59,345 nucleotides of DNA, taken from assembly GCA_030430255.1 (NCBI GenBank), contig JAUIGD010000001.1:1-59345 (forward strand), read 5' to 3'. The notes below the pieces were generated by a model. That model searched no databases, was not told the DNA's origin, and saw only the letters and a list, made by a program, of their open reading frames with translations. A program made the translations under genes and the position numbers. How positions within the stretch are numbered: position 1 is the first letter of the stretch; each line of letters begins with the position of its first letter. The DNA is from Verrucomicrobiia bacterium. GTDB lineage: Bacteria; Verrucomicrobiota; Verrucomicrobiia; Verrucomicrobiales; DEV007. Positions 5,400-55,079 of the stretch are shown in pieces.

Positions 5400-7061
5400 T
5401 CAGATCGAGACGGCGTAGCCGTCGCCCTCGCGGAGGGTGTTGCTGATCGTCTCGAACAGTTGCGGCAGCGGGTATGGCTTCTGGAGGAACGCCACCTGGT
5501 GTTCGTCGGCGGTCCGCTCGAGCGCCTCGCGCTCGGTGTATCCGGTCGTCAGGATGGCCTTCTGCCAGGGGCGACGCTGCAGCTCTTCGCGAAGGAACTC
5601 GGCGCCGTTGCCGTCCGGCAACACGCAGTCGCTGAAGATGAGGTCGAACTCGCGCCCGCCGGCGCCGCCCTCCACGCGGTCGAGCTGCTGCCGTGCCGAC
5701 GCCAGGTCGTAGGCGGTCGCGACGTGGTAGCCCTGGTTGCCGAGCGCCCGGGCGACGAACATCCGCACCTGCGGCTCGTCCTCGATGACCAGAATCTTGT
5801 AGCCCTCCCTCCCTGAAGCCTCGCCCCGCTCCCGCTCCGCCGGCTCAGCCTCCCCGCCCTGAACCACGAGCGGCAGGTAGATGTCGAAGCGCGCCCCGCC
5901 CCCCTCCCGCTCACCGACCGTGATCTCGCCGTCGTGTTGGGTGACGATCCCGTGCACGACCGCGAGCCCGAGCCCGGTGCCCATGTTCCCCTTGGTCGAG
6001 AAGAACGGTTCGAACACCCGCGCCGCCATCTCCTCCGGGATCCCGGGCCCGTCGTCCTCCAAGCTCAAGCAGAACCAGTCCGCCTCCGCGTCGCCCCCGA
6101 GCCCCAGCGCGCCGGCCTCGGACGCCGCGAGGCGCCGCGAGCGGATCGTGATCGCGCCGTTGCCGTCGAGGGCGTCGCGCGCGTTGACGGCGAGGTTCAC
6201 CAGGGCTTGTTCGAGCTGCGCGGCGTCGATCAGGCAGGGCGCCTCGCCCCCCATCAGTTCGACCTGGAGGCACACCCCCTCGCCGAGCACGCGGTCGAGC
6301 ATCGGCACCGTCCCGCCCACCACCTCGTGCACATCGCGCACCTGCCGCCGCAAGACTTGGCGGCGGGAGAACGCCAGCAGCTGGCGGGTCAGGCCCGCCG
6401 CCGCCCCGGCCGCCGAGCGGATCTCGCCCGCGAAGGCGCGCAGCTCCGCGTCAGCCTCACGCTCCGCGAGCCCGTCTTCGATCAGCTGTGCATAGCCGAT
6501 GATCGGCAGCAGCATGTTGTTGAAGTCGTGCGCGATGCCGCCGGTGAGGGTCCCGACCGCCTCCATCTTCTGCGCCTCGACCAACTGCGCGCGGACGCTG
6601 TCCAGCTGGTCCGCCTGCTCCGCGAGCGCCCGCTCGAGCTCGCGCTCGGCGCGGACCTTCTTCACCGCGACGCTGGTCAACGCCCGCAGCCCGGCTTTGT
6701 CGAAGGGCTTGATCAGGTAGCCCGCGGGGTTCGCCTCGGTCGCCCGCTCCACCACGTCGGCGTCGGAATAGGCGCTGGCGAACACACAGGGGACCCCCAG
6801 CTCCTCCCGCAGCTGCGCCGCCGCAGAGATCCCGTCGCGCTCGCCGCGCAGGACGATGTCCATGAACACGAGATCGGGGGATTCCGCCCGCGCCAGCTCG
6901 ACCGCCCTCTCGGCGTCGGCGGCGATGCCAACCACATCGTATCCGAGTTCGATCAGCAGCTCGCTCAGGTCCTCGGCGACGATCCTCTCGTCATCGACAA
7001 CCAGCAAGCGGGCGGGCGCTGGCGGCGGAGGGGGCTCCTTCGGGTCTTGTCGGTGGGTCAT
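5400..7061 (-). CDS. hybrid sensor histidine kinase / response regulator (REC-HisKA-HATPase-REC)
   Basis: N-terminal REC (LLVVDDE...VFMDIVL), H-box GIAHDFNNML, an HATPase region (NARDAL, DDGPGI, GTGLGL) and a C-terminal REC (ILVIEDE...IFSDCVLPDGNG). Confidence 0.9.
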   Translation of the reverse strand: MTHRQDPKEPPPPPAPARLLVVDDERIVAEDLSELLIELGYDVVGIAADAERAVELARAESPDLVFMDIVLRGERDGISAAAQLREELGVPCVFASAYSDADVVERATEANPAGYLIKPFDKAGLRALTSVAVKKVRAERELERALAEQADQLDSVRAQLVEAQKMEAVGTLTGGIAHDFNNMLLPIIGYAQLIEDGLAEREADAELRAFAGEIRSAAGAAAGLTRQLLAFSRRQVLRRQVRDVHEVVGGTVPMLDRVLGEGVCLQVELMGGEAPCLIDAAQLEQALVNLAVNARDALDGNGAITIRSRRLAASEAGALGLGGDAEADWFCLSLEDDGPGIPEEMAARVFEPFFSTKGNMGTGLGLAVVHGIVTQHDGEITVGEREGGGARFDIYLPLVVQGGEAEPAERERGEASGREGYKILVIEDEPQVRMFVARALGNQGYHVATAYDLASARQQLDRVEGGAGGREFDLIFSDCVLPDGNGAEFLREELQRRPWQKAILTTGYTEREALERTADEHQVAFLQKPYPLPQLFETISNTLREGDGYAVSI

Positions 7062-10417: not shown

Positions 10418-12247
10418 TCAGGTTTGGAGGGCGTCCGCGAGCAGGTCGGAGAAGCCGGCGCCGACCGCAGCGTCGAGCTCGATCCGCGCCCGCACGGCGT
10501 CGTAGCGCGCCTTCAGCCCCTGCGCCCTGCTCAGCGCGTCCATGATCAGCGCGCGGAAGATCTCGTCCGCCTCCGCCATCCCGGCGCGATAGGCGCGGTC
10601 GGTGAGGTCGCGGTTCTCGGCCGCCGTCTCGGCCGCCGACCCCAGCGCCGCGACCCGGCCCTGGGCGACACCGATCTCGATGCACGACTTCTTCACCCGC
10701 ATCGCCAAACCCTCCTCGAGCAAGACCTGCTGGTGCCGCAGCTGCTCGAGGCGGGCGCGCGCCTCGGCGACTTGGTTCTTGGTGAGGAACCCCCGGAACA
10801 CGGGCATCTCGACGCCTACCCCGACGGTCCAAGCATTGAGGTTCTCATCGGTCGCCAAACCGCCCTCGTGGCCGTTCTCGATAGCGTGGATCTTGCCGAG
10901 GAACGCGACCTTCGGGGCGAAGCCAGCCCGCGCCTGCTTGACGCCCTGCCCGGCGGCGTCCAGACCGGCGAGCAACCGCTGCCAGTCGGGGTTGAACTGG
11001 TAGCTGCGCCCGATCAGCTCGGCCGTCCCGTGCGGCAGCTCCTCGTAGCGCAGCCGCTCCTCGGCAGGCTCGATCTTCGAGTCCCAGCCCAGCCCCATCC
11101 GGTGGGTGAGCGCCGCGCAGGCGAGTTCGTAGTTGCCGCGCAGTTGCTCCAGCCCCGACTGCAGCGCATCGACGACGACCTTGTTGCGCAGATAGTCCAT
11201 CTTCGTCACCTGCATCGAGCCCCCCTCGTAAAAGGTCTGCGTCAATTCGAGCGTCGCCACCATGCGCTCGTGGACATCCTCCGCGACTCCGACCAGCTCG
11301 CGCGCCAAAACCGCCCCGGCGTAGTAACGCCTCACGTCGGAGATGAGCTCGATGGTCTCCGCCCGCTCTTCTTGCCGCGCCGCCTCGACGCCCGCCAGCG
11401 CCGCCCGGCGCCGCCCGCGGCGCTCGCCGCCGTCTGCCAACAACCATTTGGCTTCCAATGCCACGCCGTAGGTGGTGCGGTCGGCGAGCTCGAACTTCTG
11501 CGCGGGGACTTCGAGATATTGGCTCGGCACCGAAAGCTGCTGGCTGGGCACCTGGATCGTCTGCGCCGGAACCCGCACCGTCTGCGAATCCACCGGCAAC
11601 ACAAATCCGGGCGAGCCTTGGTAGAGGGCTCCGGCCGGGACCTGGATCGCCGATGCCGGCGTCCGGATCGCCCCGCCGGGATATTGAAACTGCATCTCCG
11701 GCGTGGTGAACTGCATCTCGGGCGTGTGGACGCCGAGGCCGGGGAACTCGAAGGTCGGCGCCTCGCTGCGCAGGTGCGAGAAGCCGGTCATCGACAGATG
11801 CGGCCAGTAGGCCGCCAAGGCCTGCCGGTGTTGCGCCTCCGCGATGAGGCGGCTCGCCTGCCCGACTTTCGGCGCATGGCTCTCGGCCAGGGCCAACTCG
11901 ATGCACTGCTCGAGCCGCATCGATTTCCGCAACACCGCATCGCTCGCCTTCGCCCCCGCATACGACGGAACCGCTCCATGCATGCCGTTCAGATCCTCGA
12001 TCACCGCCGGCGACAGCGCCCGGTCCAACGGCCGGACTTGCGGTCGCTCCGATACCGCAGCCTGCTCCGTCTGCTCCGACACCGCAGCCCGCTCCTTCTC
12101 CACGCGATCGCGCTCGACCAACCGCCCCTGCTTCGCCCCCCTCCCGAAGCCGCGGGTCCCCGCATCGCACGATCCCGAAGCCACGATCAACGCCGAGATT
12201 GAAATCGTTATGGATCTAATAATAAACAGGTTGTGCGGATAGTTCAC
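10418..12247 (-). CDS. TolC-family outer-membrane channel protein (start uncertain)
   Basis: Two OEP-type helical repeats (LEQCIELALAESH..., ...RYDAVRARIELDAAVG) with an xVPxQ repeat insertion. The longest ORF starts at TTG 12295. GTG 12247 gives a signal-peptide-like N-terminus (MNYPHNLFIIRSITISISALIVASGSC). Confidence 0.75.
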   Translation of the reverse strand: MNYPHNLFIIRSITISISALIVASGSCDAGTRGFGRGAKQGRLVERDRVEKERAAVSEQTEQAAVSERPQVRPLDRALSPAVIEDLNGMHGAVPSYAGAKASDAVLRKSMRLEQCIELALAESHAPKVGQASRLIAEAQHRQALAAYWPHLSMTGFSHLRSEAPTFEFPGLGVHTPEMQFTTPEMQFQYPGGAIRTPASAIQVPAGALYQGSPGFVLPVDSQTVRVPAQTIQVPSQQLSVPSQYLEVPAQKFELADRTTYGVALEAKWLLADGGERRGRRRAALAGVEAARQEERAETIELISDVRRYYAGAVLARELVGVAEDVHERMVATLELTQTFYEGGSMQVTKMDYLRNKVVVDALQSGLEQLRGNYELACAALTHRMGLGWDSKIEPAEERLRYEELPHGTAELIGRSYQFNPDWQRLLAGLDAAGQGVKQARAGFAPKVAFLGKIHAIENGHEGGLATDENLNAWTVGVGVEMPVFRGFLTKNQVAEARARLEQLRHQQVLLEEGLAMRVKKSCIEIGVAQGRVAALGSAAETAAENRDLTDRAYRAGMAEADEIFRALIMDALSRAQGLKARYDAVRARIELDAAVGAGFSDLLADALQT

Positions 12248-17003: not shown

Positions 17004-17699
17004 ATGCTCGACGACCTCAAGGCCACCGTCTGCGAGACCAACCGCGCCCTCCCGGGCACCGGCCTCGTCCAGCTCACTTGGGGGAACGTCAGCGGCATCG
17101 ACCGCGACCGTGGGATCTTCGCCATCAAACCCAGCGGCGTCGATTACGGGGAGTTGAAACCCGGGCACATGGTGCTCGTGGACCTCGAGGGGAAAGTGGT
17201 CGAGGGCGAACTCAAACCCAGCTCCGACACCAAGACCCACCTCGAGCTCTACCGCGCCTGGCCAGGCGTCGGCGGCGTCTGCCACACGCACAGCCCCGCG
17301 GCCACCGCCCTCTCGCAAGCCGGTCGCGAACTCCCCGCCTTCGGCACCACCCACGCCGACCACTTTTACGGCACGGTCCCGGTCTGCCGCGCCCTGCGAC
17401 CCGAAGAAGTCGCCGACGACTACGAGCGGGAGACCGGGCTCGCCATCGTCGCCCACTTCGCCGACCACCAGATCGACCCGCTCGCCGTCCCCGCCGTCCT
17501 GCAGCATTTCCATGCGCCCTTCACCTGGGGCAAGCATGCGCGCTCCGCGCTCGACAACAGCGTCGCGCTCGAAATGTGCGCCCGCATGGCGCTCGACGCC
17601 TGGGCGATCGCGCCGAGCACCCCGGCTCTCCCCGAGCATCTCCTCGACAAGCACTTCCTCCGCAAACACGGCCCCGGCGCCTACTACGGGCAGAAGTGA
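17004..17699 (+). CDS. araD: L-ribulose-5-phosphate 4-epimerase (class II aldolase fold)
   Basis: Near-collinear with E. coli AraD from memory (LTWGNVSGIDR, IKPSGVDY, KPSSDT.TH, HTHS, GTTHADHFYG, LDKHFLRKHG.GAYYGQ). ORF 16704..17699 trimmed to ATG 17004. Confidence 0.9.
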   Translation: MLDDLKATVCETNRALPGTGLVQLTWGNVSGIDRDRGIFAIKPSGVDYGELKPGHMVLVDLEGKVVEGELKPSSDTKTHLELYRAWPGVGGVCHTHSPAATALSQAGRELPAFGTTHADHFYGTVPVCRALRPEEVADDYERETGLAIVAHFADHQIDPLAVPAVLQHFHAPFTWGKHARSALDNSVALEMCARMALDAWAIAPSTPALPEHLLDKHFLRKHGPGAYYGQK

Positions 17700-17746
17700 G
17701 CCGCCCGCAGAAGGAAAAGACAAGCGTCCCGCGTGCCACCAAGGCT

Positions 17747-17772
17747 GGAGGGCGGAGCTCCGCCCCCGCCGT
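17747..17772. repeat. GC-rich REP-like palindromic unit (GGAGGGCGGAGCTCCGCC...)
   Basis: tggagggcggagctccgcccccgccg. Related units lie at 30942..30967 (reverse orientation) and 40816..40841. Confidence 0.6.
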
Positions 17773-17892
17773 CCCCGACCGAAAGCGTCCACCGCCAACT
17801 CACCCCCCTCGAAAGGCGAACCAAAACGCCCCGAAAACGCCCCATCCGTCCACGCGGACCATCACCAAACTCCGCGATCGCTTTCCCGTGCC

Positions 17893-17948
17893 GAGAAAAG
17901 AGGTGACGCCAGCCAGGAACCTCAACCCCTGAAAATGCTGGCGTCACC
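17893..17948 (-). terminator. intrinsic-terminator-like hairpin (12-bp perfect stem, T-rich tail on the minus strand)
   Basis: ggtgacgccagc (17902..17913) pairs with gctggcgtcacc (17937..17948). On the minus strand the stem is followed by tcttttctc. No minus-strand CDS lies upstream of it. Confidence 0.5.
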
Positions 17949-18107
17949 CCATATCCCCTCAACACAAACAAAGAGATGCGAACAAGCAGCCCTTTGTTTT
18001 ATTGAGCCAAAATATAAAGCAAACTTAAATAGTTGCGCAACTAGTTTTGGTTTCTTTTTCTTTCTATAGTTTTTGCGGGCGATGCGCGACCGCCCGCAGC
18101 CGCGACG

Positions 18108-18905
18108 ATGATTCTCCCGGATCTCCACCTTCTCACCGACCCGGAACCCGCCCGCCCAGGAGGGCTCAACATGGCCTTGGACGTCGTTTTGCTGGAGCAA
18201 GCAGCGCGCCCTTGGCTGCGGTTCTACCGGTGGGATCAGCGATCGCGCACCATCGGCTACTTCGAGCGGCCGTCCGGCCACACCGATTGCCCGGTGTTCC
18301 GCCGCCCCACCGGGGGCGGGACCGTCCTCCATGGCGGCGCGAATGACACCACCTTCGCCCTCGGGGTGCCGCGCCGGTGCGATTTCGCCAAGCTGCGACC
18401 GGCGACCACCTACACCCAGATCCACGCCGCCCTGCAGGCCGCCCTCGAAGAGATCGGGATTTCGGTTTCGTTGGCTCGAGCCGATCCACGACAGGAAGAC
18501 GAGGCAGCGGAAGACCACGCTCAGCGGTCGGGAAAAAAGACGGCCGGAGGAGCTCGCCGCCCCATCGATGCCGCCGGGGTGACGCCACCCACGCCAGATC
18601 CTGGGGAGAGAGATCCCGCCCCCGGCGAGCGCACCCCGCACACGGCCGGTGGCTGTTTTCAAAACCCGGTGCAATCCGACCTGCTCGCCGCGGACGGGGG
18701 AAAGATCGCCGGTGGGGCGCAACGCCGCAACCGCCACGGTCTCCTCCACCAGGGCAGTATCAAAGCCGGACTGAGCGGCGGCTTCCCCGAGCGCTTCGCG
18801 ACCGCACTCTGCCCGCGTTGGCAGTCGGCTCCGCTGCCCCGAACCGCCGTCGCCGCCGCACGCGAGCTCGCCCCGCGGCGCTTCCCCGATCTACGCGAAA
18901 CCTGA
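18108..18905 (+). CDS. lipoate-protein ligase / octanoyltransferase (BPL_LplA_LipB) family protein with a low-complexity insert
   Basis: RRPTGGGTVLHG, ...KIAGGAQRR...LHQGSI motifs. An acidic/Pro-rich insert of about 60 aa lies between them. Confidence 0.7.
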   Translation: MILPDLHLLTDPEPARPGGLNMALDVVLLEQAARPWLRFYRWDQRSRTIGYFERPSGHTDCPVFRRPTGGGTVLHGGANDTTFALGVPRRCDFAKLRPATTYTQIHAALQAALEEIGISVSLARADPRQEDEAAEDHAQRSGKKTAGGARRPIDAAGVTPPTPDPGERDPAPGERTPHTAGGCFQNPVQSDLLAADGGKIAGGAQRRNRHGLLHQGSIKAGLSGGFPERFATALCPRWQSAPLPRTAVAAARELAPRRFPDLRET

Positions 18906-18918
18906 ATGGACCCGCCCC

Positions 18919-19458
18919 CTATTCCGGCCCGTACTCTTGGAGAAACTCCGCCTCGATCCGCGCTTCTGTCTCCGCCCTCTCTTGTTGAAGTTCAGCCAAC
19001 TGACGGGCAAAAGCGCGCTGCCTCGCACCTTGAGAACTGCTTGCTTCCTCCCCGGTGTCTACGATTCGCGCGTCGAGAATCTCCAAATCGCGCCTCAGTG
19101 CTTTGATGCGTTCGGTGTCCGGCCGCCATTGTCCCAGCGGAAGCTGCGACAGGGAAGAGAACCCATCGGCGGTGACATCGCCGAGCGGCACGCGGTACCT
19201 CTTCGGCTCGCCCCGCCGCTGGAAGATGAGCTCTGACGAGGTTCTCCCGACAATGACCGCATCAATCTCGACACCCCCTTTGTTCACCAATCGCGCCTCG
19301 AAGGGGTAAGCCTTCGCCTCGGAATCGCCCCCGCCGCCGCCGCCTGGAGGCGAGGCTTTGAAAACTTTCGGCGCCTCCCCTTTGTCGGGGTCGCCGCAAC
19401 CGGCGAGCACGGCGAAAAGAGCTGCAGACAACAGGAATGGGGCTCTGGAGGTCGTCAT
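18919..19458 (-). CDS. lipoprotein, hypothetical
   Basis: MTTSRAPFLLSAALFAVLAGC has a signal peptide with an LAGC lipobox. Confidence 0.65.
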   Translation of the reverse strand: MTTSRAPFLLSAALFAVLAGCGDPDKGEAPKVFKASPPGGGGGGDSEAKAYPFEARLVNKGGVEIDAVIVGRTSSELIFQRRGEPKRYRVPLGDVTADGFSSLSQLPLGQWRPDTERIKALRRDLEILDARIVDTGEEASSSQGARQRAFARQLAELQQERAETEARIEAEFLQEYGPE

Positions 19459-19595
19459 ACTTCGCGTTCAGATACTGCCATACGCTACTCGTAGTTTTAC
19501 CGATCCCGCAAGTGATGTCACCGGCGGATCGCGAGGATGCACGCCGCATCGTTTTCTCACTTGGCCTCAGGCGACCGTTGCCGGACAATCCATGC

Positions 19596-21338
19596 ATGGC
19601 GTCCGCCCCGCCCCGCCCCCTCCGCCCGATCTTGGCCGTCGCGCTTCTGGGCATCGGCGGTGTCTCTTCAACCCCCGCGCAGGATCCCCCGCCGAGGCTC
19701 TCCAGCTGGAGCGAGACGGCCCAGCTCGAGTGGTGGCGCGACCACCCGGAGCCGGCGTCCCAACACGGCGGGCTCGCGACCTTGTGCGCCTCCCTGCGCC
19801 GCGCCCAAGAGCAACACGGCCTCGAGCGCGCGTTCGCCAACCGCCACTTCACCCGCTGGCTCACCCACGCGCTGTGGCTGTCGCTCTACCCGGCGCCCGC
19901 GGAGGCGGATCCCTACTTCGGCACCGCCGAAGCCCACGACGCCTTCCGCCGGGCCTCTGCGATCCCCGGCCTCGCCGCGCTGACGGTGCGCTCGATGAGC
20001 ACCCGCGACGCCCGCCCGCGCGCGCTCGAAGTGCTCTGCCGCATCGCCGCCGACCACCCCGGAGACCTCGCCGCCTACCCCGAGCTCGCGGTCGCCTTCG
20101 CCCTCGTGTGGGACCAACCGTTCCCCGAAGGGTGGCCGCACGCCAACGTCGGGATCGACGCCGTCCCCGCGGGCGACCCGGATCCGGCTGGACGCTTCGC
20201 CTTCACCGTCGCCAGCCACCGGGAAGACAAGCTCCTCCTCGACCCGCGCTCGCTATCGGTGCGCGAGCTCACCTTCGCCGTCGACACCCCGGTCGAGCTG
20301 CGCGAACTCGCCTACGTCCAGCAGGTCGAGATCGCCACCATCGCCAAGCTCGAGGGGCTCTACCGCGCCGTGCCCTACGACCACGGGCGCATCGCCGCCG
20401 AAAGCTATGGCTGGCCACACGGCCGCTACCGGCTCATCGACATCGGCAAGAAGGGCGGCATCTGCATGGACCAAGCCTACTTCGTCGCCCACACGGGCAA
20501 GGCCAAGGGGGTGCCCACCGTGCTGTTCACCGGCCAGGGCCGCTCCGGCGACCACGCCTGGCTCGGCTACCTGACGGGGCGCGGCCGATGGACGCTCGAC
20601 GCCGCCAAGTGGCGCGGCGAAAACTACCCGACAGGCCACGCCTTCGACCCGCAGACCTGGCGCCGCTTCACCGACGCGCAGATGGAGTACGCGGTCAAGG
20701 GATCCTCCGACAGCCCCTCCGCCGCCCGTGGCAAACTGATCCTCGGCTGGGCGGCGCTCAATGCCGGCCAACCCTTCTACCGCGACCTCCTGCGGGCCGC
20801 CCAGGCCGCCATGCCCCGCGGGTTCGAGGCCTGGGAACTGGAGGCCGAACTCCTCGTCAAAGCCGGTGCCGCCCCTGAGGAGAGGCGCGCCTTCTGGCAG
20901 CGCTGGGTGGCGAATTTCGCGGGCGAGCGCGACATGAAAGCGAAGGGGCAACGCGCCCTCCTCCGCGTGCTGCGCGAACTGGGTGACGACGACGCCGCCG
21001 ACCGGCTCGGGAGACAGATCGTCGCCGAGAACAAGTCGTCGCGCTTCGACCTCGGCATCGCGGTCGCCGCCGACGAGGTGTTCGCCCTCCAGGCGCGCGG
21101 CGAACATGAGGAGGCGGCGAAGGAATACGGCCGCGTGATGCGGCGCTTCAAGCGCGACGCCGGCGGCCATCTGTTCTACAACCTCGTCGAGCCCTACACC
21201 CGCGCCTGCCTCAGCGCCGCCCGGCGCGACGACGCCCAGGAAGCGGTCGCCATCGCCGGCGAGGTCCTCACCCCGCAGCCCGGCTCGATCCTCGACAACG
21301 ATTTTAGGGCGCTCCACGCCGAGGTCGATAGCCCATAG
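19596..21338 (+). CDS. secreted transglutaminase-like (Cys protease core) domain protein with a helical-repeat C-terminus
   Basis: ORF 19437..21338 trimmed to MASAPPRPLRPILAVALLGIGG. GGICMDQAYF...GDHAWLGY resembles the transglutaminase-core Cys/His. Confidence 0.6.
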   Translation: MASAPPRPLRPILAVALLGIGGVSSTPAQDPPPRLSSWSETAQLEWWRDHPEPASQHGGLATLCASLRRAQEQHGLERAFANRHFTRWLTHALWLSLYPAPAEADPYFGTAEAHDAFRRASAIPGLAALTVRSMSTRDARPRALEVLCRIAADHPGDLAAYPELAVAFALVWDQPFPEGWPHANVGIDAVPAGDPDPAGRFAFTVASHREDKLLLDPRSLSVRELTFAVDTPVELRELAYVQQVEIATIAKLEGLYRAVPYDHGRIAAESYGWPHGRYRLIDIGKKGGICMDQAYFVAHTGKAKGVPTVLFTGQGRSGDHAWLGYLTGRGRWTLDAAKWRGENYPTGHAFDPQTWRRFTDAQMEYAVKGSSDSPSAARGKLILGWAALNAGQPFYRDLLRAAQAAMPRGFEAWELEAELLVKAGAAPEERRAFWQRWVANFAGERDMKAKGQRALLRVLRELGDDDAADRLGRQIVAENKSSRFDLGIAVAADEVFALQARGEHEEAAKEYGRVMRRFKRDAGGHLFYNLVEPYTRACLSAARRDDAQEAVAIAGEVLTPQPGSILDNDFRALHAEVDSP

Positions 21339-21367: not shown

Positions 21368-23659
21368 CTACCCCCCGTTCACCGCCTTCTCGAGCGCGGC
21401 GATGAACTTCGCCTTGGCCGCTTCGGGAGCGATCGCCGGCGGCGACAGCTGCGTCGGCAGCTCCACCACCTTGCCACCCTGCGATCCGAGGATCAGCGGG
21501 TAGTAGGGGATGTTGGGCTGTTTCAACGCGTCGAGGAACTCGCTGTAGACCCAGACATCATCGGTTTGGTCGGCGACCATCGCGACGACGTCGAGCTCTT
21601 TGAGCTTGTTGGAAATCTCTTCGGTGTGCAGAACAAACTGTTCATTGGTCTGGCAGGTCAGTCACCACACCGCCGTGTAGTCGATGTAGACGTCCCGGCC
21701 GTTGCGCACGTACTCGAGCGCCTTCACCGGGTCGAAGGGTTCGTAGGTCAAGCCCTCGACGACCTTCGGCTCCAGCACGCCAGCCGCCGCCTCCCTGCCC
21801 CCGGCCACCTTGCCACCAAACCACACGAACACACCGAGGCAACCCAGCGCCGCCAGCCGCCCGACCCAGCGCGTCGCCGGTTTCTTGACCGGCGTCGCGT
21901 AGCGACCGTAGATCCAGAGGCCGAACCCGAGCACCACCAGACCGAACAGCACCCAGTAGATCGCCCCCGCTTCGGTCACCTTGCCCAGCACCGCCAGCAG
22001 CCAGACCACCGTCGCGAACAAGGGGAACGACATGAACTGCTTGAACGACTCCATCCACGGCCCCGGACGGGGCAGCTTCTGGATCAGCGCCGGGAAGTAA
22101 GACAGCAACACGTAGGGCAGGGCCAAGCCCGCCCCGAGCGCGGTGAAGATGGCGAACGCGACCACCGGCGAGCCCGTCAGGGCGAAGCCGAGCGCCGGCC
22201 CCATGAACGGCCCGGTGCAGGGCGTGGCGACCAACACCGCCAACACCCCTGAAAAAAATGACCCGCTGTAGCCGTGCTTCGCCTGCAGGCCACTGCCGGC
22301 CCCGGTGAGCGAGGTCCCCAGCTCGAAAACCCCTGCGAGGTTGAGCGCGAAGACGAACATCACCGCGATCAGGAAGATGAGGAACCAGGGCTCCTGAAGC
22401 TGGAACCCCCAGCCCGCGCTGGCGCCCGCCGCGCGGATCATGAGCAACACCGCCACCAACAGCCACAGCGACAGCACCACCCCGGCGGCGAACACCCAAC
22501 CGTGCCGCCGGATCTTCGCCCGATCGCTGCCCGCCTGCTGCACGAAGCCGAGGATCTTGATCCCGAGCACCGGGAACACACAGGGCATGAGGTTCAAGAT
22601 GAGCCCGCCGAGGAACACCGCGCCGATCAGGAGGAGCAGCGGGAAACGCTGCTTCTCCAGGCCGCCGGCGAGTTCGGCGATCGCCTCGCGCACCTGGTCT
22701 GCGGCCGGCCCTTCCTTCGCCGGGTAGCGATACCCCCCCTCCGCGACGGCCGCCAGCGGTTCGCCCGGCGGCGCCCCCGGCGGAGGATCGATCTCGCCGC
22801 CCGCCGCCGCAGCGAGGCTCATGGCATCGATCCGCAGCGGGGTCACCCCTTCGCCGACGATAAACCCGCTCACCGTGTCCGGGATGCCGGAAGCCTCCTT
22901 GTGGTAGTCCAAGATGAGACTGAGCACCCCGTCCTCCAGCGCGGCGATCGGCTCGGGACCGGCGGCGGCCAGCCCGGGGAGATCGGGCAGGAAATAGACC
23001 TCGCCATTGTACTGGCCCGCATCGTCTTCGGGCACCTTGACTTGCAGGACGAGCAGCCCCTCGTCGTCAGCGATCGTGGCTTCGGCGGAGGCGATCCCTC
23101 CCGCCCCCGCCGCGAACGCCGCCTCCAACGCCGCGGCATCTCCGCTCGGGGCGACCGCGTCCGCGACCGGGAGCGACAGGGGCGCGACTTCGGTGGTGTT
23201 CGGGGGCGTGCAACCGTTCTCGTCGCAGGCCATCCAGTTGACCGAAGCGGAAAACGCCAGCGGACCGCCCTGGGGAAGGTCGTCCGGCGCCGTCACCTCA
23301 GCGATGAGGTACACCTCGCCCTCGTAGGTGTGGGAGACCATCGAGAAGGTCTCGGTGAATTTCTGCACATACCGGTGCGGCACCGGGTAGAGGGTCTCGC
23401 TCACGGCGAAACCCGCAGGGGCGGTCCAGTCCACCGTCGTCGGCTGCCCGGTCTCCCCCGGATTCGTCCAGTAGATGTGATACCCGGAGGCGATCTGCGC
23501 TTTGACCGCGATCTTGAACGCCGAACCCGGCGCCACCGATGCGACGTCGGAGAGCAGTTCGAAGCGCACCGGATCCTGGGCGGGCGCGACCCTCCCCGCG
23601 ACGAGGGCAAAAAACGCTGCGAGCGCGATCGACAGCAGGCGGGCCGGGGGGCGGGTCAT
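21368..23659 (-). CDS. dsbD: DsbD/ScsB-like thiol:disulfide interchange protein with an in-frame TGA (21662..21664) at the first Cys position of the C-terminal WCxxC; candidate selenoprotein (alternatively a fresh pseudogene)
   Basis: N-terminal DsbD-alpha-like domain (WMACDENGC). TM core with NLMPCVFP and ATPCTGP. The ORF ends ...YIDYTAVW-TGA, then the same frame continues LTCQTNEQFVLH... with no further stops for 97 codons to 21368 (track ORF 21368..21580 is in this frame). Confidence 0.7.
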
Positions 23660-23711: not shown

Positions 23712-23951
23712 TTAGCCGATGGCCTTGTGCGAGCCATCGCAGAACGCGCCGTCGCCGGAGCGTTTGCAGGCGCAGAACGCCACCGTCTTCTTCTCCTCGA
23801 TCGTCACCTTCTGCGGGCCGAACCCCGTCCCTTTGTGGCTGCCGTCACAGAAAGGTTGATCGGCGGAGAGCCCGCAGGAACACCACCAGTAGTCCCCCGG
23901 TTCGACCTCGATCACGCAGGGCTTGGTATCGGCAATTTTCGGTTCGTCCAT
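23712..23951 (-). CDS. CDGSH iron-sulfur domain protein (two CDGSH motifs)
   Basis: Contains PFCDGSHKG and AFCDGSHKA. 79 aa. Confidence 0.85.
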   Translation of the reverse strand: MDEPKIADTKPCVIEVEPGDYWWCSCGLSADQPFCDGSHKGTGFGPQKVTIEEKKTVAFCACKRSGDGAFCDGSHKAIG

Positions 23952-23971
23952 GGATTCGTGGGGTTGGAGGG

Positions 23972-27082
<3,111 letters not shown>

Positions 27083-27301: not shown

Positions 27302-28090
27302 CTACCTCCTCCCGGAGGTTCGGCCGAGCGTCTTCGGCAGCCGCCGCCGCGGCTCGTCGCTCACCTCGAAGGTCTCCTCGCCCCGGAACAGACGCCCGAC
27401 CCCCTCGCCGATCCCCTGGAAACCCTCCTTCACCCGGTCGGCCGCCCCGCCGACCCGCTCCCCGATCGCGGGGCCACCCACCACACCGCCGTCGCCGGGC
27501 ACCGCGCGGACCGCGCGCCGCCCCGGATCGGCCGGCGGCACCACCGGCTCGCGGTTGCCGTCGCGCGGGTGATACCACGACTGACGCACCACGCTGCCGT
27601 CTTCGCCCGAAACCTCGACCTCGCCCACATCGCGCCCGGCGCCGTCGCGGAGATAGAGGATCCAGAGCGGCGAGTTCCCCAGCGCCCCGGCGGCGAGCTG
27701 GTAGTCGATGGAGTCAAAACCCACCTTCGCCGCCGTCGCCACCCGGTTGGCGATGTTGAACGCCTCGCCGGAATCGACCCGCAAGCGCCGCATGTCGACC
27801 GGCACCCCGCCGCCAGCAGAATAGACCGTGTCGGCGACGATCCGGCCGTCGCGGACGACGAAGACCCGTTCGCCGTCCGCGACCCGGGTCGAAACTTCCC
27901 AAGCCTGTGGCTGATCCTGCCCCGACTCCCCACGCACCTGCGTCACCTGCTGCACCAGCGCGGCTCCGCGGCTCGCCTTCAGCGCATCCAGCGCCTGCCA
28001 CGCCGTCGAAGGGGTTTGGGCGGGAGCCTGCGAGAGCGCAAAAAGGATCGCAGCCAACAAGAACCAAGGGAGGAACTTCGAGCGTTTCAT
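27302..28090 (-). CDS. secreted hypothetical protein (two PepSY-like repeats, weak)
   Basis: Signal peptide MKRSKFLPWFLLAAILFALSQAPA. An AT-rich operator-like region lies upstream. Confidence 0.6.
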   Translation of the reverse strand: MKRSKFLPWFLLAAILFALSQAPAQTPSTAWQALDALKASRGAALVQQVTQVRGESGQDQPQAWEVSTRVADGERVFVVRDGRIVADTVYSAGGGVPVDMRRLRVDSGEAFNIANRVATAAKVGFDSIDYQLAAGALGNSPLWILYLRDGAGRDVGEVEVSGEDGSVVRQSWYHPRDGNREPVVPPADPGRRAVRAVPGDGGVVGGPAIGERVGGAADRVKEGFQGIGEGVGRLFRGEETFEVSDEPRRRLPKTLGRTSGRR

Positions 28091-28104
28091 TATTAAAAAA
28101 CTCT

Positions 28105-28127
28105 CTTAATTTTTGATAAAAATTAAG
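28105..28127. promoter_or_regulatory. perfect 10-3-10 AT-only palindrome (operator-like)
   Basis: CTTAATTTTTgatAAAAATTAAG lies 15 nt upstream of the ATG of gene 27302..28090. Confidence 0.4.
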
Positions 28128-53352: not shown

Positions 53353-53435
53353 GATCCCGCGGCTCAGCGACCTGCACCTCGCCCTTCTTCCCCCTCCGAA
53401 AGGCCAATCTCCACCCACGACGGCAGTAACCCCCC

Positions 53436-55079
53436 GTGAACCTTCCCCCACCGATCCTCCCCGCCGCCGTCCTCCTCACCGCCCCGGGCGCGTTCGCCCA
53501 GCACCAGACAGCAACGCTCGACGAACCCCACACCGGGGGGGCGCTGCCATACTCGATCGAGATTCGCGAGGTGTCCCTCGCGCCCGCTGCGGTGCCGAAC
53601 CTCCACTCCGCGGCGGCCGCGATCTGGGAGGGGCAATGGGTGCTCCTCGCGGGCCGCACCAACGGCCTGCACGGGATGACCGGAAGGAATGCCTTCGATC
53701 CCGTGTTCGAGAACCGCGAGGTCTGGGTCATCGACCCGGAAGCCAAACAGAGCTGGAGCCGGCAGCTCGACGGGCCCGGCGGCGGCCTGACCACCGATCA
53801 GGTCGACTCGCTCAGCTCGGTGAACACGCAGTTCTACCAAGACGGCACCCGGCTGCTGGTCGTTGGCGGCTACGGTTACTCCCGCACCGCCGCCGATCAC
53901 CGCACCTATGCGACGCTCACGGCGATCGACCTCCCCGGGCTGGTCGGTTGGGTCAAGGGCGACGCCTCGTCCGCCGCCGATCACGTCGAGCAGATCTCCG
54001 ACAGTTTCTTCCAGGTCACCGGCGGCGGCCTCGAACGGATCGGCGACGAGTTTCAGCTCGTCTTCGGCCAGAACTACCCCGGCCGCTACCGGCCAAATTT
54101 CAACGGCACCTACACGCAGGGTGTGCGCCGGTTCAGGATCAGCGCACCGGGTGCACCGTTCGCCGTTCTGCCGGGATCGAAGCTGCAGTCCGGCGGCGAC
54201 AGCGCCTACCGGAGGCGCGACCTCAATATCGCACCGATGCTGGAGTACAGCTCGCCGGCGAACGGCGCCCCGGCGATCGCCGAGGCGGCCGTCGCCCTTT
54301 CCGGTGTGTTCACGACCTCCAACGGCGTCTGGACCATCCCCGTAACGGTCCGTGGCGGCGGTTCGCTATCGATGCCGGACCCGCTCGATGCAGCGACCTT
54401 GAAACAGGCGTTCCAAATCTACCACTGCGCCAAGATCGGCCTGTTCCACCGCGCGACGGGGGAGATGCATTTCCTGCTCTTTGGCGGCATCACCGTGCTC
54501 GAGCGCGACGCCGTCTCCGGCGTCTGGAACCGCGATGACAACGCCCCGTTCACCAACCAGTGCGGCACCGTGGTGCGGCATCCCGACGGCCGGTTCGAGC
54601 AGTACTTCCTCCCCGCCCGCTTCCCGGTGATCCTGTCGGGCGGCAAGGAGCTGCGGTTCGGCGCCAACGCCGAATTCCTGCCGTCTCCGCAGGTGGGGCA
54701 ACTGACCCGCAACGTGCTCGATCTCGCCGCCATCGAAGGCCGCACCGTGATCGGGCACATCTTCGGGGGCCTCGCCGCGGACGCCGGCAACGACGGCAAC
54801 ACCGGCTCGTCGGGGCGCGTGTTCGAGGTCGCCCTGACCCCGCTGCCCCCCGCCGCTCCCCGGCTCGACATCGCCCACGACGGCGAGGGGCTGATCTTGG
54901 TCGTCGAGCAGCCAGAGGCCGGATCCTCTTACCTGCTTGAGGAATCGCTCGACCTCGTGAACTGGGCGGCCGCCGCAACCCCGGTCGCAGCGGGCGCCGA
55001 GCCACTGAGCTGGACCGTTCCAGAACAAGGGGGACGCCGTTTCTACCGGATCCTCGCGGGCACGGTGTCGCAGCCGTGA
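53436..55079 (+). CDS. secreted beta-propeller-like (Kelch-like, weak) protein with RFYR-type tail
   Basis: GTG start with signal-like MNLPPPILPAAVLLTAPGAFA. Repeated ...LLVVGGYGY / ...FLLFGGI blades. Ends ...GGRRFYRILAGTVSQP. Confidence 0.7.
   Translation: MNLPPPILPAAVLLTAPGAFAQHQTATLDEPHTGGALPYSIEIREVSLAPAAVPNLHSAAAAIWEGQWVLLAGRTNGLHGMTGRNAFDPVFENREVWVIDPEAKQSWSRQLDGPGGGLTTDQVDSLSSVNTQFYQDGTRLLVVGGYGYSRTAADHRTYATLTAIDLPGLVGWVKGDASSAADHVEQISDSFFQVTGGGLERIGDEFQLVFGQNYPGRYRPNFNGTYTQGVRRFRISAPGAPFAVLPGSKLQSGGDSAYRRRDLNIAPMLEYSSPANGAPAIAEAAVALSGVFTTSNGVWTIPVTVRGGGSLSMPDPLDAATLKQAFQIYHCAKIGLFHRATGEMHFLLFGGITVLERDAVSGVWNRDDNAPFTNQCGTVVRHPDGRFEQYFLPARFPVILSGGKELRFGANAEFLPSPQVGQLTRNVLDLAAIEGRTVIGHIFGGLAADAGNDGNTGSSGRVFEVALTPLPPAAPRLDIAHDGEGLILVVEQPEAGSSYLLEESLDLVNWAAAATPVAAGAEPLSWTVPEQGGRRFYRILAGTVSQP

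Follow-up and report, generated by a model that had tools for sequence, protein, structure and literature searches.

An in-frame UGA as probable selenocysteine codon in a ScsB-type member of the DsbD superfamily from Verrucomicrobiales

Does a TGA inside a catalytic motif end a gene or encode selenocysteine (Sec)? The question is raised by a contig of a Verrucomicrobiia bacterium of the order Verrucomicrobiales (assembly GCA_030430255.1, contig JAUIGD010000001.1), which was analysed as a whole (59 kb, exactly 59,345 nucleotides; the window). On its minus strand a gene for a membrane reductase of the ScsB/DsbD type reads ...RDVYIDYTAVW, meets a TGA at 21664..21662 and continues with LTCQTNEQFVLHTEEISNKLKELDVVAMVADQ...IPYYPLI..., the frame staying open for 97 codons down to a TAG at 21370..21368. 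An earlier note made from this DNA had proposed Sec at the first Cys of a thioredoxin WCxxC motif. The answer given here draws on direct observations, namely the domain architecture, the position of the codon, the exchange of TGA and Cys codons among homologues, selection on the downstream part and a covarying hairpin. Together they suggest that TGA 21664..21662 is very probably a Sec codon in a real selenoprotein gene.

Translation bears out the frame described in the earlier note, including the in-frame position of the open reading frame (ORF) 21368..21580; the residues directly after the TGA are LTCQTNEQFVLHTEE... The complete coding sequence of the putative Sec-containing ScsB/DsbD-type reductase (21368..23659, minus strand) comprises 763 codons including one UGA, probably read as Sec (U666, 21662..21664, with TGA or TGC/TGT in homologues), and the final TAG. 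It is delimited by translation, Pfam matches, a start chosen from homologues and synteny with the related loci L201 and L203. The earlier note had placed the start of the ORF at 23737. ATG 23659 fits better, because a frame begun at 23737 would extend into the CDGSH gene upstream, the homologue alignment shows hardly any variation at the Met of 23659 (M12 of the called protein) and a typical signal peptide opens there. ORF 21368..21580, with 70 codons from an internal ATG, is no gene of its own but the C-terminal part of the thioredoxin-like gamma domain, without the active site.

An open stretch of 97 codons is in itself unremarkable at 69% GC (estimated p ~0.14). The sequence 3' of the TGA has coding composition, with a G+C content of 0.85 at third (GC3) and 0.35 at second codon positions (GC2), and the match to Pfam Thioredoxin_7 (residues 652-700) runs across the TGA. 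A scan of the window found it to be the only in-frame TGA with coding-like sequence on both sides; a stricter first scan for a TGA with coding flanks had given zero matches, because the A/U-rich codons of the hairpin described below depress the local GC3. Two adjacent in-frame ORF pairs at 10418 and 49825 are ordinary neighbouring genes with different domains. As the earlier note had argued from thiG, genes of the window usually stop at TGA (about 18 of the 30 confident genes do). Among these are thiG and secA, the latter two genes upstream of the reductase gene, with a SEC-C motif that ends 2 residues before the stop; family models of secA and thiG reach their C-termini. Since TGA ends most other genes, including these two, the code is not reassigned.

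The predicted protein starts with a signal peptide (residues 1-26, MTRPPARLLSIALAAFFALVAGRVAPA, 23582..23659) with a hydrophobic segment at residues 8-26 and a putative cleavage site at APA-QD. The N-terminal subdomain of the alpha domain matches Pfam DsbD_N (residues 42-159, 23183..23536, E=2e-15) and carries the redox pair C145 (23227..23225) and C150 (23212..23210), both invariant in the homologue alignment; the ScsB-alpha-like region reaches to about residue 300. Eight hydrophobic helices form the beta or membrane domain (21800..22645), as seen from a hydropathy scan, invariant motifs and the match to Pfam DsbD_TM (residues 343-556, E=7e-18). The membrane redox residues lie in two of these motifs, C360 in LMPCVFPV (22582..22580) and C481 in ATPCTGPF (22219..22217). 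The gamma domain with thioredoxin fold (residues ~630-763, 21371..21772) contains W-U666-L-T-C669, and translation places the codon of the resolving Cys C669 at 21655..21653. All of these features are on the minus strand. From the signal peptide and the eight membrane helices it follows that both soluble domains should be periplasmic.

A whole-protein phmmer search against the PDB gave no match, and the structural matches came from profile searches. A profile of 26 gamma domains matches the gamma domains of DsbD from E. coli and Neisseria (4ip1, 2fwe, 1uc7, 1vrs, 6dnl) with E values from 2e-12 to 1e-9. In the alignment DFTAdWCltCk stands over DLYADWCVACK, so that the UGA takes the position of the first Cys of WCVAC, the nucleophilic Cys to which the earlier note had assigned it. 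The profile of the alpha region, built from truncated homologues, matches a single PDB structure, that of ScsB-alpha from Proteus mirabilis (6c29, E=3e-10); the match covers profile positions 28-264 and thus both subdomains. nDsbD was not matched. Six redox residues are found, two per domain (C145/C150, C360/C481 and U666/C669), which would be five Cys and one Sec. The architecture is that of the ScsB class which Cho et al. 2012 (PMC3322552) defined within the DsbD superfamily, with alpha, beta (8 helices) and gamma domains in one chain and a long ScsB-type alpha domain of two subdomains. With high confidence we read the gene as one for a full-length electron transporter of the DsbD superfamily that has three domains, the N-terminal one of ScsB type, and in which Sec would replace the first Cys of gamma. 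The alpha redox pair is Cx4C in the window protein (ACDENGC, 23227..23210, minus strand) and Cx3C in the consensus of the relatives and in P. mirabilis ScsB.

If the TGA encodes Sec, the codon and the domain behind it should be kept in related genes. The protein comparison set consisted of the best 120 homologue clusters. Among these, 71 (42-62% identity, mostly metagenome-assembled genomes (MAGs) of Verrucomicrobiales) break off right after ...D[FY]TAxW, and 42 full-length clusters at greater distance read WCxxC. At the DNA level, TGA was found in five MAGs of Verrucomicrobiales/Akkermansiaceae among the GTDB reference genomes (L001, L004, L024, L030, L039), and TGC or TGT at the same codon in about 50 other genomes of Opitutales, Akkermansia, Luteolibacter, Haloferula, proteobacteria and acidobacteria. 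The comparison of orthologs proposed in the earlier note thus gives either TGA or a Cys codon at this position. A pattern scan of metagenome DNA aimed at the TGA form yielded at least 120 loci, and in 116 of the matches listed, with GC contents from 34 to 71%, the TGA is followed by an intact, highly diverse thioredoxin domain. Where enough upstream DNA was available (67 loci), an ORF of at least 550 amino acids (aa) was present in 64 and the DsbD membrane Cys motifs in 63-66.

The domain behind the TGA, described as free of decay in the earlier note, is indeed under purifying selection. The ratio of nonsynonymous to synonymous substitution rates (dN/dS) is 0.08-0.39 downstream and 0.11-0.42 in the 97 codons upstream, and so no higher downstream. 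Conservation extends to the 27 codons that lead from the TGA to the internal ATG and include the resolving Cys. The case that would have spoken against Sec, relatives truncated at this point with a degraded frame behind it, was not encountered; relatives share the stop and their downstream frame is intact. Both marks of a selenoprotein gene are therefore present, a UGA aligned with the catalytic Cys of homologues and a sequence 3' of it that is conserved as coding. The nearest relatives, L201 (GCA_028280355.1) and L203, share the TGA and the gene order of secA, the reductase gene, a large gene without known function and lplA. In L203 a frameshift occurs just 5' of the TGA (~6720..6840) on a contig labelled with 2x coverage, and the frame resumes with IDYTAVW-TGA-ATCKTNEQF; it is probably an assembly error rather than decay.

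Decoding of UGA as Sec in Bacteria is directed by an mRNA hairpin, the Sec insertion sequence (SECIS). In E. coli fdhF, SelB recognises G-U in an apical loop (GGUC) at about the distance found here, and the role of G23/U24 in SelB binding is established. In nearly all TGA forms of the present family a hairpin follows that has its 5' foot at +21/22 (counted from the U of UGA), where the Glu of a conserved Asn-Glu is encoded; among its versions are CGAGGC-GGUC-GCCUUG, UGAGAAG-CGUGU-CUUCUCA, GAGAGC-CGUGU-GUUCUC and GAGCGC-GUG-GCGCUC. By one fixed rule, a perfect stem of at least 4 bp starting at +20..+24, the hairpin was found in 93 of 107 unique Sec forms, every one of the 93 with GU in the loop, and in 14 of 49 Cys forms, 7 of which have a GU loop. 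At seven other offsets in the same genes GU-loop hairpins occur in 0-11 of 100, and in shuffled sequences in 2.9%. Locally, Sec forms fold more stably (z=-1.18) than Cys forms (z=-0.13; nominal p=2e-8), despite the lower GC content of the Sec forms.

The 5' start of the hairpin is kept and its 3' arm pairs in four registers across clades (i+j = 56, 57, 58, 60); the hairpin seems to have been rebuilt without insertions or deletions inside the coding frame. In two register classes, which were picked by presence of the hairpin, 97-99% of cells are paired versus at most 65% with the partners slid, and compensatory changes are seen at 3 of 7 and 2 of 5 pairs, respectively. Sec forms nearly always have Asn-Glu at codons +6/+7 after the UGA (21646..21641 in the window) and Cys forms mostly Asn-Lys; the codon for this Glu, GAR, forms the 5' foot of the hairpin, which suggests that the protein sequence is under constraint from the RNA element. 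The likeness to the fdhF SECIS lies in a hairpin 3' of the UGA and within the coding sequence, in G-U in all variants and in the identical GGUC loop of the largest clade. It differs in that the loop lies at +27..+32 instead of +22..+25, in stems of 4-8 bp and in the four registers of the 3' arm among clades. No Rfam family covers the hairpin.

Some members depart from this pattern. A subclade with Asn-Tyr or Asn-His in place of Asn-Glu (L004, 4849 onward, and L083) is without the +22 hairpin and has a hairpin of 10-13 bp with a GGUUC loop starting at about +33. As the one replaces the other, the presumed SECIS appears to have moved downstream in this subclade. Strong hairpins at the equivalent position were also seen in TGC-form homologues from Panacagrimonas and Reyranella (L078, 4888 onward, and L080, 2050 onward), one of them being CGAGCGC-AUC-GCGCUCG with -10.7 kcal/mol. 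These could be relics of a former SECIS or due to chance.

In the window itself the candidate SECIS apical hairpin is GAACA-GUU-UGUUC (or GAAC-AGUUU-GUUC) at 21631..21643 on the minus strand, that is +22..+34, at the family-wide position and with G-U in the loop. No difference is seen in the surrounding 17 nt among 12 clade members, whose genomes range from AT-rich to 69% GC. Its codons AAU GAA CAG UUU GUU CUG are the same as in AT-rich relatives, while GC3 of the genome is near 0.88; the rare codons AAU, GAA, UUU and GUU are in the gene because the hairpin forces them. In the register class of this hairpin, pairing holds in 96.9% of cells, with compensatory change at 2 of 5 pairs. A hairpin that lies shortly 3' of the UGA and carries G(U) in its apical loop is thus a property of the family, of which the window has a weak copy.

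The earlier note had described SECIS-like pairing with correct coordinates, GGUGUG (21671..21666) with CACACC (21628..21623) around the small hairpin GAAC-AGUUU-GUUC (21643..21631). The small hairpin stood the comparison, as it lies at the site of the covarying G-U-loop hairpin of the family. The outer helix GGUGUG:CACACC did not: it closes the fold of minimum free energy of 58 nt, which is no more stable than shuffled sequences (z=-0.5), and 2 of its 6 pairs are lost without compensation in the nearest relative L201. Scans of the window for tRNAs and Rfam families gave nothing, and a permissive Rfam scan of the site gave a chance match to SAM-Chlorobi only, on the opposite strand (E=0.92).

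In the mechanism proposed here, SelB with Sec-tRNA(Sec) would bind the mRNA hairpin that starts 21-22 nt after the UGA and has G-U in its loop, and with SelB bound in this way the ribosome would insert Sec rather than terminate. By analogy to DsbD and ScsB, electrons would pass from cytoplasmic thioredoxin to C360/C481 in the membrane, then to U666/C669 of gamma and to C145/C150 of alpha. From alpha they may reach partners in the periplasm, for instance proteins of the ScsC, TlpA or peroxiredoxin type; it is homology that suggests this transfer from the cytoplasmic thioredoxin to the periplasm. The selenolate of U666 would attack the alpha-domain disulfide, being a stronger nucleophile and a better leaving group than a thiolate. 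Actual insertion of Sec, the partners and any kinetic advantage are what we infer from these data.

Other explanations of the TGA have to be weighed against a Sec codon. If it were a true stop, an alpha-beta protein without gamma would be made, and the 70-aa ORF 21368..21580 would be a separate small protein or nothing. Gene callers and the NCBI annotation read such genes in this way, as 'DsbD domain-containing' proteins of 613-683 aa followed by a 70-aa ORF. However, the 27 codons before the internal ATG, with the resolving Cys, are conserved, the 70-aa product would be without an active site, and the whole downstream stretch has a dN/dS as low as that upstream. Furthermore, it is established for the DsbD cascade that DsbD without gamma is unable to pass electrons to alpha. 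We consider a true stop very improbable. To produce the TGA from a TGC or TGT codon, by decay to a pseudogene or by an error of sequencing or assembly, a single-base change would suffice, and the frameshift of L203 at 2x coverage is close by. This possibility is effectively refuted by the same TGA in more than 120 independent assemblies with an intact and selected downstream part. Because the TGA is conserved and the downstream domain both intact and selected, pseudogene, sequencing error and true termination are excluded as general explanations.

A slim chance is left to read-through without selenium, in which Trp or Cys would come from a near-cognate or suppressor tRNA, or Cys from the Sec machinery at low selenium, so that the thioredoxin domain would be ordinary or inactive. 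Translation of the downstream domain is clear, yet sequence data do not identify the inserted residue, and genes for the Sec machinery were missing from the DNA at hand. On the other hand the codon lies exactly at the catalytic Cys, where exchange of Sec and Cys is the rule in thioredoxin-fold selenoproteins, and the hairpin at fixed distance with its G-U loop, an element of the type recognised by SelB in E. coli fdhF, is specific to TGA forms. In addition, other genes terminate at TGA, and long retention of the TGA across genomes of 34 to 71% GC is not explained by a generic read-through.

Several points weigh against reading the TGA as Sec. No tRNA-Sec, selA, selB or selD was found in the 59-kb window or in the 200 fetched loci. 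ARAGORN detected 5 tRNAs and no tRNA-Sec in all 200 loci, and tblastn of all loci with E. coli SelD and SelB as queries (approximate sequences) hit only CysN (L161) and LepA (L094). The hairpin of the window is short and weak (-2.9 kcal/mol, z=-1.7), and the fold of its 58-nt context is no more stable than that of shuffled sequences (z=-0.5). Selection of the register classes by presence of the hairpin inflates the percentage paired, the double changes being nevertheless real, and the p-values are not exact, as the sequences are phylogenetically related. Incorporation of Sec into the protein is a conclusion from sequence evidence. When the flanks of the Sec loci were searched for second selenoprotein genes, with an in-frame TGA near Cys and conserved between loci as the criterion, nothing came up but off-frame shadows of conserved genes. 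As background only, complete sets of the Sec machinery have been reported for marine Planctomycetes of the same superphylum (PMC4807772); Peng et al. 2016 say nothing about Verrucomicrobia at phylum level in their main text.

Is such a protein new? Thioredoxin-fold proteins with UxxC are the commonest kind of selenoprotein, and the DsbD-gamma type of this fold is presumably the one modelled by cd02953 in CDD. The protein of the window is probably a new member of a known selenoprotein type, as a UxxC 'thiol:disulfide interchange' selenoprotein of the DsbD-gamma type was listed in 2008 from the GOS ocean metagenomes. The earlier note had left open whether a Sec form of a DsbD-type protein had been described, and at the level of the domain the answer is yes. 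A UxxC 'thiol:disulfide interchange protein' is also listed for Geobacter and Syntrophus (PMC1794560; PMC13188914); the one from Geobacter is assigned to PF13098 and is perhaps another protein. Compared by their descriptions, the GOS and listed proteins appear to share with the present family UxxC in a DsbD-gamma-type domain, many Cys and few Sec homologues and a marine distribution. However, those reports give a thioredoxin-like domain from short reads or a name only, and state neither the alpha-beta-gamma architecture of the ScsB type nor the abundance in Verrucomicrobiales nor the hairpin. Sequences of the Trx-like 2 family are absent from the GOS supplements.

ScsB proteins of Caulobacter, Salmonella and Proteus (6c29) have in common with the window protein the order alpha-beta-gamma, 8 membrane helices and a long alpha domain of two parts with two conserved Cys. 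All those described have CxxC in gamma, whereas the window protein has UxxC, and its gene has no scsC or scsD as neighbours. With E. coli DsbD (2fwe, 1uc7, 1vrs, 4ip1) it shares a homologous gamma domain and the layout of a cascade of six redox residues, but its alpha domain is ScsB-like and not nDsbD-like. It scores 103 bits with the NCBIfam model PRK00293 (DsbD), below the cut-off of 330, and belongs to the superfamily outside that subfamily. The best NCBIfam match, TsoB (NF045694), a selenoprotein like a rhodanese/DsbD fusion, is likewise below its cut-off (141.9 bits versus 805). Both are composed of DsbD membrane and thioredoxin parts, but TsoB has a rhodanese domain and UxxxxU with two Sec, and the window protein has neither of these and a single UxxC. 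The DsbD/ScsB literature makes no mention of a Sec form; a literature search on selenocysteine in connection with ScsB, CcdA or DsbD yielded only a 2026 review mentioning TsoB, the table of which has no entry with DsbD membrane or alpha domains except TsoB.

The main value of the finding is a correction of annotation. Public records give a truncated 'DsbD domain-containing protein' for at least 71 nearby protein clusters and over 100 metagenome contigs, in many cases with an orphan 70-aa ORF behind it. This split looks like a systematic artefact of an unrecognised Sec codon. No NCBIfam model marks the ScsB-type UGA family as a selenoprotein; a model of that type combined with the hairpin signature would mend the annotation. 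In the relatives the tail of the gamma domain is called as a separate gene of 70-72 aa (L201 12044..12256, L203 6901..7119), the main gene having 650-680 aa.

The natural pairs of Sec and Cys at the gamma nucleophile, in the well-characterised DsbD/ScsB relay, offer a clean system to learn what selenium buys in a defined electron-transfer step. Neither the annotation nor the biochemistry overturns current understanding. A wider claim can be put forward only tentatively, and we lean somewhat against it: the Sec form might be the predominant ScsB of marine Verrucomicrobiales and allied lineages, never explicitly described in full length, systematically split or truncated in public annotation and the first natural selenium relay in a DsbD disulfide cascade. 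A corollary might be that selenium supply gates periplasmic reducing power, and without Sec insertion an alpha-beta protein without gamma would be left.

Several sizeable ORFs without a Pfam family were found at 17078..17932 (plus strand), 17922..18749 (minus), 27302..28105 (minus) and 53430..55079 (plus), and between 17.0 and 18.1 kb of the window no frame is confidently coding by GC3. The gene between secA and the ScsB-like gene encodes an iron-sulfur protein of the CDGSH type (23712..24005, minus strand; Pfam zf-CDGSH, E=5e-18). It is absent at the syntenic L201, where secA and the reductase gene are separated by about 120 nt. Convergent with the reductase gene lies an ORF of 658 aa (19362..21338, plus strand) with strong coding composition and no Pfam match, and counterparts in the same position are present in L201 (588 aa) and L203 (572 aa).

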